In this document: positions 159-24,545 of the stretch, piece after piece
Layout of the letters: each line of letters starts with the position of its first letter
Numbering within the stretch: position 1 is the stretch's first letter
From: a virus
Taxonomy: Duplodnaviria > Caudoviricetes
Strand: one strand, 5' to 3'
DNA: 36,955 nt
Virus record (IMG/VR): IMGVR_UViG_3300049173_000026
Location: 1-36,955 of that record
Notes under the pieces: generated by a model
What the model saw: the letters and a program-made list of their open reading frames with translations, nothing else
Databases searched by the model: none
What the model was told of the DNA's origin: nothing
Translations under genes and position numbers: made by a program

Positions 159-1673
159 ATGGGAATAGTAGTTGGCGGCTACGCGCGCATTAGCGACGTA
201 GGGGAACTCGGCGACGGCCGAGACGGTGAGGAAGGCGTCACCCGCCAGAAAGAGGACGTGCACGATCTCGTCCGGGTCCGCGACCTGACCTTGCACCGCA
301 TGTACGTCGACAACGACCTCTCCGCTTACAAGCGCAGGGTGACCCGGCCAGACTTTCGAGAGCTGGTGAACGACCTGGAGACGGCTGTCATCTCGGGTGT
401 AGCGGCCTACAACATCGACCGCATCACCAGGCAGCCGCGCGAGCTGGAGCAGCTCATCGACATCTACGCGACGGCCCGCCGTCCGATGGTGTTCGCCACG
501 ACGGCCGGTGACTACGACCTGTCCACCGACGATGGCCGGTTCAATGCCCGGCTGTACGTGATGATCGCGAACAAGTTCTCGGCGGACGCGGCACGCCGAG
601 TGGCCCGGCAGAAGAAGGCCGAGGCGATGCAGGGGAAGCCGCACAGGGGTCAGCGGCCCTTCGGCTGGCAGAGCGGCGGGGAGAAGACCGAACCGTTCGA
701 GGCCGAGCTGATCCGAAAGGCTCAGCGGGACATCCTGAACGGCAAGCTCTTGTCCGAGGTGCACGCCGAGTGGGCCCAACTGGGCATCACCAGTCCGCAG
801 ACTCCCGCCGGCAAGCCGATGTCCTTCTCCAGCGTCGAGTACATCGTGACGAACCCCCGGCTGTGCGGTTACCGGGCCTACGTGCCCCAGCAGGAGCGCG
901 AGAGGCGCGGCCGGGTCGACCTCGCCGAGTTCCTGCTCGAACGGACCGACGGAACGCCGATCGTCGGCTCGTGGGAGCCGATCTGCACCCCGGATGAGTG
1001 GCGGGCCGTGCGGGACGTACTGAAGGCCCGGAAGACGGAGGGCCGGGGCCGCAAGAAGGGCTCGACGGTCACGAAGCGGATGCTGACGAGCATCGCGCGA
1101 TGCGGCGAGTGCGGCCGGGGAATGTTCTCGGCGATCTACACGCGGGGCACCGTGAGCTACGAGAAGTACGGGTACTTCTACCTGTGCCGGAAGCCCGAGG
1201 GCGGATGCGGTTCGGTGTCCCGATCAGGACCGCCGGTCGAGGAACACGTCGAGCGCGTGCTCCTGGCGCACCTGGCGAACCTGTCGAAGGACTCTCGGCC
1301 GGGCCAAGCGCAGGACGACCCGGAGCTGATCAAGGCACGGCGGGATCTCGCGCAGGTCGAAGCGGACATGGCGGAAGCTCGGCAGCTCCGCGAGGCGGGC
1401 GAGTTCCCCCTCGGCGAGTTCGTGCGGGAGATCAAGCGCCTCGAAGGCAAGCGCGACGAGCTGTCGGTGAAGGTGGCCGGACTGAACGCCATGGGGCCGC
1501 AGACGGGCGCCTCGGCCGCCGAGCGGATCATCCGCGAATGGGAGACGTACACGGCCCCGATGAAGCGCGCCGTGATTCAGCGGTTCATCGAGGCCGTGGT
1601 GATCAGGAAGCAGCCGCGAGGCGGTAAGCACGCCTTCCGTCCGGACTTGATCGAAATCTTCTGGAAGAAGTGA
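159..1673 (+). CDS. int: Large serine integrase
   Basis: N-terminal YARIS catalytic motif, DNDLSAY and DRITR motifs, recombinase domain, zinc ribbon (CGECG...YLC...C) and coiled coil; 504 aa. Confidence 0.97.
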   Translation: MGIVVGGYARISDVGELGDGRDGEEGVTRQKEDVHDLVRVRDLTLHRMYVDNDLSAYKRRVTRPDFRELVNDLETAVISGVAAYNIDRITRQPRELEQLIDIYATARRPMVFATTAGDYDLSTDDGRFNARLYVMIANKFSADAARRVARQKKAEAMQGKPHRGQRPFGWQSGGEKTEPFEAELIRKAQRDILNGKLLSEVHAEWAQLGITSPQTPAGKPMSFSSVEYIVTNPRLCGYRAYVPQQERERRGRVDLAEFLLERTDGTPIVGSWEPICTPDEWRAVRDVLKARKTEGRGRKKGSTVTKRMLTSIARCGECGRGMFSAIYTRGTVSYEKYGYFYLCRKPEGGCGSVSRSGPPVEEHVERVLLAHLANLSKDSRPGQAQDDPELIKARRDLAQVEADMAEARQLREAGEFPLGEFVREIKRLEGKRDELSVKVAGLNAMGPQTGASAAERIIREWETYTAPMKRAVIQRFIEAVVIRKQPRGGKHAFRPDLIEIFWKK

Positions 1674-12337: not shown

Positions 12338-12761
12338 GTCTCGACCGTAACGGGGGGGTGGTGCGTCGCGCTCGCTGAGCGAAGTACGTCTTCGCGTCTT
12401 CATGAAGGGGCGGCCGACAGGCCGCCACAGCCGCTCGCCGCCTTCACGCTGTCCGCCCTCCGGGCGGCATCACTCCTTCGCCGCTGCACTTCTCCGCCGT
12501 CGCCCTTCGGGCGCCGCCGAAGTGTGACCGAGGTCACGTACGTTCGTCTTTCCGGAATCAAGATCAACTAGCGACTTATAAGTGTAAGTACGTAAGTCGC
12601 AAGGCTCGCAAGGCTTGAGCCCCTGGCGGGGCTCGCCTGCATGAAGACGCCTTGCGTAATTCGCGCGTTCGCGAATTGCAGGCTTGGCCCCGCAGGGGCC
12701 ACCTGATGAAGACGAAGTACGTACGCACGTATTCACGTACTTCGCTCGCGAGGGGGTCTTC

Positions 12762-13271
12762 TTGGAGATCCTCGAACTCTGCGCCGGTTACGGCGGGCTG
12801 GGTATGGCTGTAGCTCCCCTGGTCAGCGGTCGCGTGGCGTACGTCGCCGAGACCGCGCCAGGCCCGAGTGCAGTCCTCGCCGAAAGGTATCCGGACGCTC
12901 CGAACCTCGGCGACATCCGCGAAATCGACTGGACCGAGCTTGTCGGCCTGGTCGAAGTAATCACCGCAGGCTTCCCCTGCCAGGACATCTCGATTGCGGG
13001 GAACCGGGTTGGAATTCGAGGCTCTCGTTCTGGAGTCTGGGTCAATGTCGTTGACGCAATTCGCGTCATACGACCGAAGCTCGTCTTCTTGGAAAACGTC
13101 TCGAACATCCGGACGCGCGGGCTCGAAGTCGTCCTCGCTGACCTGGCCGAGATCGGGTACAGCGCGCGATGGGTGTGCGTACGAGCTACCGCAGCTCAAG
13201 CCCCTCACCTCCGTGACCGCTGGTTCTGTATCGCGACCCCTGAAGACGCCGACCGCGAACTTGGGCACTAA
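12762..13271 (+). CDS. C5 cytosine DNA methyltransferase, N-terminal/catalytic part (motifs I-VIII)
   Basis: ELCAGYGG (I), GDI, AGFPCQDIS (IV), LENV (VI), PHLRDRWF (VIII). TTG start after GAGGGGG. Confidence 0.9.
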   Translation: MEILELCAGYGGLGMAVAPLVSGRVAYVAETAPGPSAVLAERYPDAPNLGDIREIDWTELVGLVEVITAGFPCQDISIAGNRVGIRGSRSGVWVNVVDAIRVIRPKLVFLENVSNIRTRGLEVVLADLAEIGYSARWVCVRATAAQAPHLRDRWFCIATPEDADRELGH

Positions 13272-13683
13272 CGGCGGCGCCCGTCACCCTGACGAACGTC
13301 GAGCTGGTGGTCACGGCCCCACGCTCGACGACGAGGCGTGCTACCTCCTCCCCTACTCGGACGCGATCCGGGAAGGCCGCGAGCCGGAAGCCGCGGTGGA
13401 CGGGCCGCAGTCTCCCGCGCACTGGTGGGGCGAGTACCTCCCCGCCATCCGGCAGTGGGAGGAAGTGACCGGCCGCGCCGCTCCCCCGCCTACCGAGCCG
13501 GGCCGCAAGGGCGGACCCCGTGTAACCGTCGAGTGGGTTGAGTGGCTCATGGGCCTCCCCCTCGGCCACGTGACCGGCGTCCCCGGCCTGACGCGCGGAC
13601 AACAGCTCCAGATCCTCGGTAACGGCGTCGTCGTGCAGCAGGCGACGACCGCGTACGCGGCACTCCTCGACCTGGGGGTCTGA
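13045..13683 (+). CDS. C5 DNA methyltransferase, C-terminal part (motifs IX-X), overlapping frame
   Basis: EWLMGLPLGHVT (IX) and QLQILGNGVV (X). ATG at 13045 with GGAG upstream. Confidence 0.8.
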   Translation: MSLTQFASYDRSSSSWKTSRTSGRAGSKSSSLTWPRSGTARDGCAYELPQLKPLTSVTAGSVSRPLKTPTANLGTNGGARHPDERRAGGHGPTLDDEACYLLPYSDAIREGREPEAAVDGPQSPAHWWGEYLPAIRQWEEVTGRAAPPPTEPGRKGGPRVTVEWVEWLMGLPLGHVTGVPGLTRGQQLQILGNGVVVQQATTAYAALLDLGV

Positions 13684-13997
13684 TGCCGAACTGGGCTTCA
13701 TCCGACCGGCGCGAGAGGTTGCCGGCGGATTGGCCGAAGATCCGACTTCGCGTCCTTCGCAGGGACGGGAACCGCTGCACGGCCCGCGATCAGTACGGGC
13801 AGCGCTGCGAGGAACCGGCCACGGACGTAGATCACATCGTGCCTGGTGATGACCATCGAGAGACCAACCTACGAGCACTCTGCGGGTTTCATCACCAGGC
13901 CAAGTCCTCTCGCGAGGGAGCCCTCGCACTCGCCGCACGGCGGCGCCGGATCGACAAGCGCTTCAAGCGGACGGAGGCCCATCCGGGGCTTCTCTAA
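13683..13997 (+). CDS. HNH endonuclease (packaging-associated)
   Basis: VLRRDGNRC...C...DVDHIVP...NLRALCGFHHQAKS; upstream of the terminase genes. Confidence 0.93.
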   Translation: MPNWASSDRRERLPADWPKIRLRVLRRDGNRCTARDQYGQRCEEPATDVDHIVPGDDHRETNLRALCGFHHQAKSSREGALALAARRRRIDKRFKRTEAHPGLL

Positions 13998-14763: not shown

Positions 14764-15192
14764 ATGCCCGGCCCCGTGCCCAACCGTGAAGCCGACCTGG
14801 CCCGCCCACGCGAACGCAAGGGCAGCGATGTCCAGTCGGTGACGCGTGGCCTCGCCCGGCCTACGAAGGTCCCGAACGGCGACCGCTCCTGGCATCCGAT
14901 CGCGAAGCGCCTGTGGGACTCCCTGAAGGAGTCCGGCCAAGCCGACTTCTACCAGGCGTCCGACTGGGCCCTCGCGTACTCCCTCTGCGAAGACCTCTCC
15001 TTCTACAAGAAGTCGGGGAAGCGGTCGGGTCAGATGCTCCAGACCATCTACAGCGCCTTCGAGCGACTCCTCGTCGCCGAGGGCGACCGGCGCCGTGTGC
15101 GCATCGAACTGCATGAGCCCGAGCCCGAGGAGCAGTCCGCGGCCGTGCTCGCCATTGCCGACTATAAGAAGGATCTCGGACTCGCCGAGTGA
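14764..15192 (+). CDS. terS: Terminase small subunit
   Basis: MPGPVP start, WHPIAKRLWDSLKESGQ, EGDRRRVRIEL; GGAGG RBS; precedes terL. Confidence 0.88.
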   Translation: MPGPVPNREADLARPRERKGSDVQSVTRGLARPTKVPNGDRSWHPIAKRLWDSLKESGQADFYQASDWALAYSLCEDLSFYKKSGKRSGQMLQTIYSAFERLLVAEGDRRRVRIELHEPEPEEQSAAVLAIADYKKDLGLAE

Positions 15193-15225: not shown

Positions 15226-16876
15226 GTGAGTCCCATTCCAGCCCTCACCGCAGAAGAGATCGACGCCCTCGAACCCTCCTTCCTCGGCCCCACCTGGCTC
15301 CGCGAGCCTGACGGCTCCTGGAAGCTCCCCGAGCACACGCTCGGGTGGCAGATCGCCGGATGGTGCGCCGAGTACCTGAAGGCCGAGGACAGCGGGCCCT
15401 GGCGCTTCACGCGCGAGCAGCTCCGCTTCGTCTTGTGGTGGTACGCGGTCGACGACACCGGCCGCTTCATCTACCGCAAGGGAGTCCTTCAGCGCCTCAA
15501 GGGCTGGGGATTACGGCAAGGACCCGCTTCTCGCCGTGATCAGCCTCGTCGAGTTCGTCGGCCCGAGCCGCTTCTCGCACTGGGGCCCTGACGGGCAGCC
15601 GGTCGGCGTGCCCCACCCGCAGGCGTGGGTGCAGATCGCGGCCGTCTCGCGCGACCAGACCCGCAACACCATGACCCTGATGCCGAGCCTCATGAGCGAC
15701 AAGCTCATCGAGACGTACGGCATCAAGGCGGGCGCCGAGCTGATCCGTGCGAACGGCGGCCGGCAGCGGCTCGAAGCGGTCACTAGCTCGTTCCGCGCCC
15801 TCGAAGGCGGCCGAGTCACCTTCACCGTGCTGAACGAGACGCACCACTGGGTGACCGGCAACAACGGCGACCGCATGTACGAGACGATCGACGGTAACGC
15901 GACGAAGAAGGACTCGCGTTATCTGGCGATCACGAACGCGTACCTGCCCGGCGAAGACTCCGTGGCCGAGAAGATGCGCGAGGCATTCGAGAAGATCCTC
16001 GAAGGCCGCGCGGCCGACATCGGCTTCATGTACGACTCGATCGAGGCGCACCCCGCAACACCCCTGACGCCCGAGGCGATTCGCATCGTCCTGCCGAAGA
16101 TCCGGGGTGACGCGGTCTGGCTGCGCGTCGAGACGATCCTTCAGTCGATCCTCGACACGACGATCGCGCCGAGCCGCTCGCGGCGTATGTGGCTGAACCA
16201 GATCGTTGCGAGCGAGGACGCCCTCTTCGGCCCGGCCGAGTGGGACGTTCTCAGGGACGACGACAAGCAACTCCAGCCCGGCGACGAGATCACGATCGGG
16301 TTTGATGGCGGCCTCCGCGACGACAGCACTGCCCTGGTTGCCGTGCGCGTCAAGGACATGTGCGCCTTCGTGCTCGGCCTGTGGGAGAAGCCGGACGGCC
16401 CGGCCGGTAAGGACTGGGAAGTGCCCCGCGCACAGGTCGACTCGGCCGTACACGACGCCTTCCGTCTGTTCGAGGTGCAGGGCATGTACGCGGACGTGGC
16501 GCTCTGGGAGTCCTACATCTCCGAGTGGTCCGAGCTGTACGGCGAGGGCCTGGCCGTGAAGGCGCCCGGCAAGGACGCGATCGGCTGGGACATGCGCACC
16601 AGCCTGAAGGCGTCGACCCTCGCGAACGAGCGCCTCATGCGCTCGATCTTCGACCGCAAGCTCGCCCACGACGGCGACCGCAAGCTCCGCCGGCACGTGC
16701 TGAACGCGCGGCGCCGAACGAACAACTACGGCGTGAGCTTCGGCAAGGAAGGCCGCGAGTCGCCCAAGAAGGTCGACGCGTACGCGGCTCTCATGCTCGC
16801 GCACGAGGCCCTGTTCGACCTCCGCGCCCGAGGCAAGAAGGTCCGCAAGCGGACCGGCCGAGGGTTCTTCCTGTAG
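15226..16876 (+). CDS. terL: Terminase large subunit, split across two frames by a 7-nt insert at 15508-15514 (candidate translational bypass)
   Basis: Frame 1 runs to RLKGWG and frame 2 continues GKDPLLAVIS. Contains Walker B LNETHHW, nuclease GFDG and KVDAYAA. Confidence 0.9.
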
Positions 16877-16909: not shown

Positions 16910-18331
16910 ATGGCCGAACCCACGCCCGCCTCACTGGCGGTGCAGCTCCTCGCCATCCTTGGCCGGGACAAAGACCGGCTGACCCGGATCGACAACTATC
17001 TCCACGGCAGGCATGACGACCCGTACATGCCCGCCATGGCTGACGACGAGTACCGGCTTCTCGCGAAGCGGGCGGTGTCGAACTGGACGCCGCTCCTGGT
17101 GAACACCCCGGCGCAGGCTCTCTACGTGGACGGCTACCGGTCGGGCGACGAGGACTCGACGGGCTCGGCGACCAACCAGGCGTCCCCCCAGTGGGAGCAC
17201 TGGCAGCGGTCCCGCCTCGACGCCCGGCAGTCGGCCGTCTACAAGGGCGCGCTGACGTACGGGCACTCGTTCACGCTGACCGAGCGCGTCAAGGGTGTAG
17301 TCCTGACGAAGGGCCTGTCCGCGCTGCGGACGGCCGCCCTGTACGAGGACCCCGCGAACGACGACACCCCGTATGCGGCGCTGACCGTGACGGCCTGGCC
17401 CTCGGGCGAGTCCGCCGGCACCGCCCGCATGTGGGACGGCCGCTTCGAGCACGCGGTCACCTTCAAGGCACTCGACGACGCCGAGGGCGTCCGCGTGGGC
17501 AAGGGCAAGCGCCACGGTGCGAGCGAATGCCCCGTGACCCGCTTCGCTGCGTCGGTCGACCTGGAAGGCCGCACGGTCGGCGTGGTCGAGCCGATGATCC
17601 CGTTGCAGAACCGGATCAACCAGACGATCTTCGACCTCTTGCTCGCGCAGTCGTACGGCAGCACGAAGGTCAGGACCGTGACGGGCATGGCCCCGCCGGT
17701 CCAGCGCGACCCGGAGACGGGCGAGGTCGTCTACGACGAGCAGGGCAACCCGATCCCCCTGCCGATCAACCACAACGCCAAGCGCTTCCTTTTCGCCGAG
17801 GACCCGGACGTTCGTTTCGGGTCGCTGGACGAGACTCCGCTCGGCGGGTTCATCGACTCGATCGACATGAGCATCCGGCACCTCAGCGCCGTTGCGCAGG
17901 TGCCCCCGCATCACCTACTTGGACAGATCGCCAACCTCTCGGCCGAAGCCTTGCAGGCCGCCGAGACGGCGCTCAGCCGCAAGATTCAGGAGTTCCGTAC
18001 GGCATTCGGAGAAGCCTGGGAGAGGGTCTTCCGTTTGGCCGCCGAGCTGGAAGGCGCGGGCGGCGAGGACGACTTCAAGGGCGAAGTGATCTGGCGCGAC
18101 ATGGAACAGCGCTCGTTGGCGCAGGCCGCTGACGCACTGGGCAAGCTGCGCGAGCAGCTCGGCATCCCGGCGAAGGGCTTGTGGAAGCGCGTCCCGAACG
18201 TCACGCAAACCGAGCTGGACGAGTGGGACGAACTCGCCGAGGACGAAGACTCGGTGGGTCAGCTCGCTTCCGCTCTCACGCGCGCTACGCCTGAACCGGT
18301 CACCGCGGATTCCGTCGCGGCGGCGGCATGA
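16910..18331 (+). CDS. Portal protein (SPP1 gp6-like)
   Basis: Position, size 473 aa, NLSAEAL motif. Confidence 0.92.
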   Translation: MAEPTPASLAVQLLAILGRDKDRLTRIDNYLHGRHDDPYMPAMADDEYRLLAKRAVSNWTPLLVNTPAQALYVDGYRSGDEDSTGSATNQASPQWEHWQRSRLDARQSAVYKGALTYGHSFTLTERVKGVVLTKGLSALRTAALYEDPANDDTPYAALTVTAWPSGESAGTARMWDGRFEHAVTFKALDDAEGVRVGKGKRHGASECPVTRFAASVDLEGRTVGVVEPMIPLQNRINQTIFDLLLAQSYGSTKVRTVTGMAPPVQRDPETGEVVYDEQGNPIPLPINHNAKRFLFAEDPDVRFGSLDETPLGGFIDSIDMSIRHLSAVAQVPPHHLLGQIANLSAEALQAAETALSRKIQEFRTAFGEAWERVFRLAAELEGAGGEDDFKGEVIWRDMEQRSLAQAADALGKLREQLGIPAKGLWKRVPNVTQTELDEWDELAEDEDSVGQLASALTRATPEPVTADSVAAAA

Positions 18332-23721: not shown

Positions 23722-23826
23722 TAGCTCCCGGCGCGGGTGTGTTGCGGACCCGCCCGCGCCGGGCTCACCCCTCTCTCTCAGGTCCGCAGCCCTTCCCTGT
23801 TCTTCTCACTGGAGGTCCGCAACCCC

Positions 23827-24165
23827 ATGGCTTCTTACTCCCTCGACGACATCCGCGCCGCCGCTGAGCGCAAGTACGGCTCGACCGACATCACCCTCGG
23901 CGAGGACACTGTCCGTCTCCTCAACCCGCTGCGCCTGCCGAAGGCTCGCCGTGACGCGCTCCTGTCCCTTCAGGAGCAGATGAGCGCCGACGACGCCGAC
24001 CAGGCCGCGCTTCTGTCCGACGCGATTCGCACGATCGCCGAGTCCGAGAAGGCCGCCGAGAAGCTCCTCGAAGCCGTGGGCGGTGACCTCGCGGTCCTCG
24101 CCGAGATCTTCGGCCACTACGGCGAGAGCACCCAGGCGGGGGAAGCCTCGGCCTCGCAGGACTGA
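23827..24165 (+). CDS. Tail assembly chaperone (short form)
   Basis: GGAGG RBS; LLNPLRL motif; ends after the slippery GGGGGAA. Confidence 0.88.
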   Translation: MASYSLDDIRAAAERKYGSTDITLGEDTVRLLNPLRLPKARRDALLSLQEQMSADDADQAALLSDAIRTIAESEKAAEKLLEAVGGDLAVLAEIFGHYGESTQAGEASASQD

Positions 24166-24545
24166 TCGACGAGTACGGAGAGGGCATTTACCCGGACCTG
24201 CTTTTCCATTTCGGCATCAACCTCGCCGACGTGATAGCGGGCCGGGGCCCTTCCCCTGCACTCGTCCTTCTCCTCGTACAGAGGCTTCCCGACACCTCCC
24301 TTACGGTCGCCCTCGCGTCCGGCGGCCGTGACCATTTCGGCTGGGGTCAGGACCGGCACATGTCGGCCGACCTCTTCGACGCGATCAACCAGAACACCCG
24401 CGCAACTGGCCAGTGGGGCAAGGGCAAAGCGCCGAAGATCCCCGCCTATCCGAGGCCGCAGGCGAAGAAGGCCGAGAAGAAGAAGAACAAGGCCATTAAG
24501 CCGCGCTCGGTCGCGGAGATTTACAAGCACTTCCAGCGGAGGTAA
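23827..24545 (+). CDS. Tail assembly chaperone, -1 frameshift extended form
   Basis: G GGG GAA at 24138-24144; the -1 frame is open to 24545. Confidence 0.82.

Follow-up and report, generated by a model that had tools for sequence, protein, structure and literature searches.

In this study, we report that the large terminase subunit gene (terL) of a temperate, Streptomyces-type phage from soil is split by GGA-TTA-C-GGC, and that the break falls in the Walker A loop, where it separates Gly95 from Lys96. The gene lies in a window of 36,955 nucleotides, which is the whole stretch of DNA that was analysed. On balance, the comparison of sequences leads us to read this 7-nt insert as a conserved coding gap that is most likely hopped by ribosomes and that is likely a throttle on full-length TerL, set off by any slow codon in the A site, with coupling to bldA as a possible extra. 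The phenomenon is already published, as far as the available part of PMC10732093 goes, and this terL adds one more case, with an unusual GGA/GGC pair of codons. There are very few examples of natural programmed translational bypassing, and the phage terminase case had rested on three genes. The data on the family outweigh the single locus: gap lengths in all frames and the rule followed by sense-led inserts argue for hopping.

The 5′ part of terL (15226..15510, + strand) starts with a GTG at 15226, comprises 95 codons ending in RLKGWG, and matches PHROG 9, terminase large subunit (E 3.9e-18). The 3′ part (15518..16876, +) has 452 codons from the Walker A Lys96 (AAG at 15518) and matches the same family (E 3.4e-59). 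Between them lies the coding gap TTACGGC (15511..15517, +), with TTA (15511-15513) as first codon and GGC (15515-15517) as last triplet and predicted landing site; from the translation, the predicted take-off codon is the GGA of Gly95 (15508..15510, +). The sequence at 15499-15526, AAG GGC TGG GGA TTA C GGC AAG GAC CCG, is exactly that given by the first-pass annotation, which was also right that the take-off and landing codons differ: GGA and GGC both encode Gly, and the landing would form 2 of 3 pairs only. With its 7 nt, the gap breaks the frame. As the same annotation had claimed, a UUA decoded normally leads to the TGA stop at 15589..15591 (+), since the TTA shares the frame of the ORF that begins at GTG 15226; this stop lies 26 codons on and ends a 121-aa product. 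A decoy GGA that fully matches the take-off codon is found at 15520..15522 (+), at +12, and would return the ribosome to the dead 0 frame.

The position of the break is supported by homology and structure. A family profile of 99 homologues places KGWGKD on the Walker A motif of HK97 TerL (RKNGKT); with single sequences as queries, searches of PDB and Pfam did not recover TerL. The AlphaFold model of an intact relative (L005, 96% identical, pLDDT 95) has a strand at 85-89, a loop and a helix from Lys96, and matches solved terminases. Moreover, gap-free Streptomyces phages align over 94 nt to a 101-nt query, exactly 7 nt fewer, in 60/60 listed (best 60 of 403 matches; cultured phage records).

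The insert is conserved, and both halves of terL are under purifying selection. An identical insert is present in a prophage of Streptomyces sp. AC558_RSS880 (L004), which differs from the window phage at 18 other positions within 2 kb and is 95-99% identical to the window across five long stretches. Over the 452 codons 3′ of the gap, the two differ by 14 synonymous and 0 non-synonymous changes (2e-9 if neutral). The insert is also present in two soil runs, X3 (contig depth 16.7) and X4 (depth 32.4), in contigs without gaps; one low-depth X3 contig that lacks it carries 14 other differences and is a relative. Run X1, from which this DNA may itself derive, was left out of the count. An assembly error, or an insert unique to this genome, had been named beforehand as what would speak against the bypass; both are contradicted by the prophage copy and by the X3 and X4 contigs. 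Since the insert recurs unchanged in an independent Streptomyces prophage, with only synonymous changes downstream, it is neither an assembly error nor the mark of a pseudogene. Among carriers in general, dN/dS of the terL 3′ part is 0.03-0.19 in 18/18 pairs, chosen by hand, and the portal gene is intact in 20/21 GTDB carriers. One carrier, L049, whose terL is broken at another point as well and which lacks an intact portal, looks like a decaying prophage.

The window is a fragment of a temperate phage, in which integrase, terS, portal, head, tail and lysis genes are intact. The integrase gene (159..1673, +; PHROG 95, E 1.7e-71) is adjoined by a ThyX thymidylate synthase gene (1790-2623, −). 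Upstream of terL are an HNH endonuclease of packaging type that is not linked to the insert (13683..13997, +; PHROG 333) and the terminase small subunit (14764..15192, +; Pfam PF25673, E 5.9e-45); downstream, the portal gene (16910..18331, +) begins an intact head-tail-lysis operon. No tRNA genes were found in the 36,955-nt window. A DNA methyltransferase is encoded in two overlapping frames (12684-13271 and 12994-13683), each matching a different PHROG, and is likely a two-subunit enzyme. The tail assembly chaperone pair (23737-24165 and 24231-24545) has the usual programmed frameshift layout. Finally, soil run X4 holds a 33-nt match to terL 15875-15907 between repeat-like ends; these presumably resemble CRISPR repeats, and the match is possibly a spacer against the window phage.

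To place this gap in its family, searches without a first-codon requirement were combined with three phages. Of the resulting 199 terL loci, the site could be read in 187 (not in 12), and these yield 142 distinct contexts. An insert is carried by 68 of these 142, which is no frequency because one search had asked for inserts only; among GTDB Streptomyces terL loci, the share of carriers is 19/42. The 68 contexts hold 44 distinct inserts that span 4-16 nt, in all three frames. Their first codons are TTA (33), TGA (16), TAG (9), TAA (3), AGA, AGG and CCA (2 each) and GAT (1), so that the recurrence of TTA at this site, for which the first-pass annotation had advised aligning relatives, holds for 33/68 carrier contexts. 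TTA or a stop leads 39/44 distinct inserts against a background of 1.9%, with p-values that are overstated because the inserts are kin. The take-off codon GGA of the window is found in 2/68 contexts. A 10-nt TTA gap is present in four cultured phages (phiHau3, BroPlease, GreenWeasel and Triumph); a stop-led gap was seen in no cultured phage among the 40 matches listed. The distant carrier L127 is 86% identical to Streptomyces phage Attoomi, and one S. albospinus genome has two prophages (L025 and L027) with differing stop-led 9-nt gaps (TGA and TAA). The lone exception to the slow-codon rule is L181, whose 11-nt insert in Walker A begins with GAT, a common codon, ahead of six consecutive T, possibly a slippage signal; this locus was omitted as doubtful from the site-2, tree, folding and selection counts, and was later judged genuine and included in the 68 contexts.

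Carriers are spread across the terL tree, with 17 state changes in 129 genes and at least 15 in 103 close genes (FastTree only; 12 partial contexts omitted), and TTA and stops interchange between close relatives. A second gap site lies before Walker B: a Ser-TTA-...-TCC/GCC gap of 7 or 10 nt in 15 contexts, all TTA-led (L002, L003, L016, L018-L020, L022, L030, L037, L051, L052, L225, L403, L404 and L416). L022 and L052 have the site-2 gap only; GreenWeasel has it and BroPlease does not. Other surveys added nothing: a TTA-specific scan of viral sequences gave mostly noise, with 8 terL matches that all duplicate the first-codon-free search; a scan of 6 of 64 parts of the metagenomes gave 1 terL among 119 matches listed, a duplicate; and in a phylum sample of 401 genomes only the centre genome matched. 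Stop-led terL gaps were not found in the openly accessible literature that was searched.

From these data we put forward, tentatively, that actinophage terminases bear widespread and exchangeable minimal bypass elements of 4-16 nt at two sites. Their only rule would be a take-off codon, a slow codon and a landing with 2 of 3 pairs, and their trigger would be swapped among TTA, stops and rare Arg/Pro codons, tuning packaging to host states such as the supply of bldA tRNA, release factor or rare tRNAs. If true, these elements would form the largest collection of natural bypassing in bacteria, and their variants a mutational series made by nature for studying the mechanism. In practice, carrier genes get annotated as a hypothetical protein and a truncated terminase.

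The mechanism is very probably a ribosomal hop, and the 7-nt bypass suggested by the first reading is well supported by comparison: gap lengths vary, landing triplets keep their pairs and in-frame lengths follow a rule. In-frame lengths occur in 0/18 sense-led and 15/26 stop-led distinct inserts (Fisher 5e-5), which makes each gap a dead end for any ribosome that does not skip it. The landing triplet makes 3 pairs with the take-off tRNA in 52/68 contexts and 2 pairs in 16/68, and never fewer than 2. One rule fits every gap length: a stall at a slow A-site codon, release, a forward slide and re-pairing on the triplet before Lys. In the window phage, the stall would occur when peptidyl-tRNA-Gly sits on GGA and the A site holds UUA; the peptidyl-tRNA would detach and the ribosome slide 7 nt, to re-pair on GGC with 2 of 3 pairs and restart at AAG, giving GWG-K. 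Ribosomes that read UUA, or that slide on to the GGA at +12, would end at 15589. Because of the imperfect GGC landing and the perfect GGA at +12 in the dead frame, the hop in this phage is probably inefficient. In standard decoding, GGA and GGC do not share a tRNA. MnmG was absent from 4/4 actinobacterial host genomes (G001-G004), in which MnmE was below the cut-off; as a lead only, missing MnmG/MnmE might leave tRNA-Gly(UCC) unmodified and ease the GGC landing, an effect for which our literature search found no support among the papers listed.

We also looked for stimulators of the hop, comparing 31 carriers with 72 non-carriers (103 close genes). A Shine-Dalgarno-like AAGGG within the Lys-Gly codons (15499..15503, +), located 4 nt upstream of take-off and 11 nt upstream of landing, could drive the ribosome forward; it is also present in non-carriers. 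A possible 5′ hairpin encompassing the take-off codon (15483..15512, +) is not above shuffles (z -0.54 and 0.02), and finds no support as a stimulator, folding being no stronger in carriers (-9.5 vs -10.5 kcal/mol in non-carriers). A possible 3′ hairpin from the UUA (15511..15539, +) is not above chance (z -0.20) and is likewise unsupported, the control in which insert and downstream sequence are swapped being null (23/67); despite this, L030, L225 and L016 have stems of 10-12 bp. Upstream AAGGGAG, a GGT take-off and downstream CTT are Fisher-enriched in carriers and unsupported by independent pairs. The Lys codon is AAG in 30/31 carriers and 70/72 non-carriers. A Leu CTT at -7 (20/31 carriers vs 14/72 non-carriers; pairs median p 0.03) is the sole signal of six traits tried.

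What the hop is for is less certain than the hop itself. We lean towards a general throttle as the main purpose of the terL gap. The simplest function shared by all carriers would be to keep TerL low, the UUA possibly adding sensitivity to growth phase. The alternative, which we consider rather unlikely, is that the hop was selected as a bldA sensor, TerL being made when charged tRNA-Leu(UAA) is scarce, during vegetative growth, and switched off when it accumulates. This is the model of Smith 2013, as given in the accessible part of PMC10732093, and it is also the view of the first-pass annotation, which inferred that scarcity of bldA tRNA is a precondition of packaging. It draws support from the TTA that leads 13/19 Streptomyces site-1 gaps and 15/15 site-2 gaps, the latter favouring a UUA-specific role, and from the two identified non-Streptomyces hosts (Actinoplanes and Nocardioides), which have TAG. 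Moreover, the TTA at 15511-15513 is the sole in-frame TTA found, with 0 in 9,821 codons of 33 hand-picked phage genes. We take bldA to be present in the host genomes. However, a stop stands instead of TTA in 6/19 Streptomyces carriers, which weakens a pure bldA-sensor reading: a TTA gap exists at site 2 in 2/6 of these genes, but 4/6 are without any TTA gap, and close relatives have TGA or TAA instead. In any case, no codon is rarer than TTA in these GC-rich phages, where AGA, AGG and CCA also take its place. Packaging also comes late, which we reason is a poor point for a lysis-lysogeny decision. In the part of PMC10732093 that was available, there is no comparison with a bldA mutant, the full-length product of phiHau3 g6/g7 was seen in S. 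coelicolor, in cultures of 2-3 days, and the authors themselves regard regulation as not proven. For the terL gap, bldA control is unproven and would not be the whole story. The window and L029 offer natural TTA/stop pairs in genes ~95% identical, which makes bldA control directly testable.

It is more doubtful that the gap is a tolerated scar or a shield against homing endonucleases, spread by recombination, with the hop merely rescuing the gene, as proposed for T4 gene 60 with MobA (cf. PMC5050341, in its available part). Distant relatives have inteins 2 codons before the site (KG|SGK, P0128), 1 codon after it (GK|S, P0230 and P0254) and 7 codons after site 2, and the number of state changes among close genes is consistent with spread. 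Furthermore, the 45 nt upstream of the insert are 0.96-0.98 identical to those of carriers L037 and L410 and 0.82-0.87 to those of the nearest non-carriers; they look as if exchanged together with the insert. Against this, no nuclease within 3 kb upstream tracks with carriers (HNH in 28/28 carriers vs 56/57 non-carriers), Walker A inteins were seen only in relatives of ~35-46% identity with a different motif, and silent changes would be a cheaper shield. Overall, TerL-family inteins (P0121-P0137, P0230, P0254 and others) were observed to sit at four positions, two of them in Walker A and the others at Gln142/Thr143 and in Walker B.

As for the decoding route, a +1 frameshift at GGA-UUA would yield a full-length TerL with two extra residues (GWG-YG-K), and we judge it very improbable. 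A gap of 7 nt does correspond to the +1 frame, which is open from 15512, but tRNA-Gly forms a single pair with the +1 triplet GAU, and gaps of 5, 8 and 11 nt (+2), as well as stop-led gaps of 6, 9 and 12 nt, require other events. Frameshifting or readthrough would call for a separate event at every gap length, and the residues thus added would lengthen a loop whose [KR]G-x-GK spacing is fixed in 87/95 diverse intact homologues, that is, in 87/87 detectable motifs, the remaining 8 being without one. In addition, a +1-frame stop within the phiHau3 gap did not lower recoding, according to the available text of PMC10732093. Variable lengths in all frames and sense-led gaps that are never in frame thus favour hopping over +1 frameshifting.

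We give hardly any credence to removal of the 7 nt from the RNA, or to rare DNA revertants, as the source of TerL. The absence of a GGN landing in 9/67 gaps could point that way, but these nine still make 2 of 3 pairs. Gap ends and structure are not conserved, which speaks against RNA removal. No RNA dataset with this sequence was present among the matches listed. Revertants are opposed by the gap being kept in the consensus genomes of cultured phages and by the lack of a same-strain deletion form in the soil-run contigs, which drop rare variants. A pseudogene, an assembly error or separate translation of two halves from the GTG at 15536 would account for the broken frame and that start codon, yet is negligible given the independent identical copy, the purifying selection and the intact operon, and given that Lys96 would be missing from both halves and GTG 15536 has no clear Shine-Dalgarno sequence.

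The ribosomal hop proposed here has its closest counterpart in phiHau3. The first-pass annotation had pointed to a UUA-containing insert of about 10 nt in the terL of this phage, correctly so: the available part of PMC10732093 describes UUA gaps in 3/100 genes, namely phiHau3 (two of 10 nt), StrepC.1 (one) and a S. catenulae prophage (7 nt). In E. coli, recoding was seen there only once UAA had replaced UUA, and the junction determined by mass spectrometry was GWG-N(K)DP. The window terL belongs to the same protein family as that of phiHau3, with 77% DNA identity, and shares with it a junction directly after KGWG and UUA as first codon. It differs in its single gap, its decoy GGA at +12 and its GGA/GGC pair, instead of GGC/GGU in phiHau3 and GGC/AGC in S. 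catenulae. The S. catenulae prophage (L013) also has a 7-nt gap, according to the same partial source, and its landing likewise makes 2 of 3 pairs. While the set published in that part of PMC10732093 is all UUA, the 68 contexts surveyed here, with gaps of 4-16 nt, include some led by a stop, AGA, AGG or CCA.

T4 gene 60 and its homologues resemble the window terL by a Gly take-off, a slow A-site codon (a stop, replaced in three homologues by a rare codon) and a truncated non-bypass product (bioRxiv 10.1101/2022.08.31.505936 and PMC5009743, in the parts available). In the window, the gap is 7 nt rather than 50, a hairpin is unsupported and the landing is not on a codon of the same tRNA, by comparison with what these partial sources describe. 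A linked homing endonuclease, unlike in T4, was not found within 3 kb upstream of window-type terL genes. Finally, the byps of Magnusiomyces mitochondria, as far as their description was available, share short inserts after the take-off codon, an unused A-site codon and tolerance of an imperfect landing; the terL gaps differ from them in that the ribosome is bacterial and only one gene is concerned, at one or two fixed sites.
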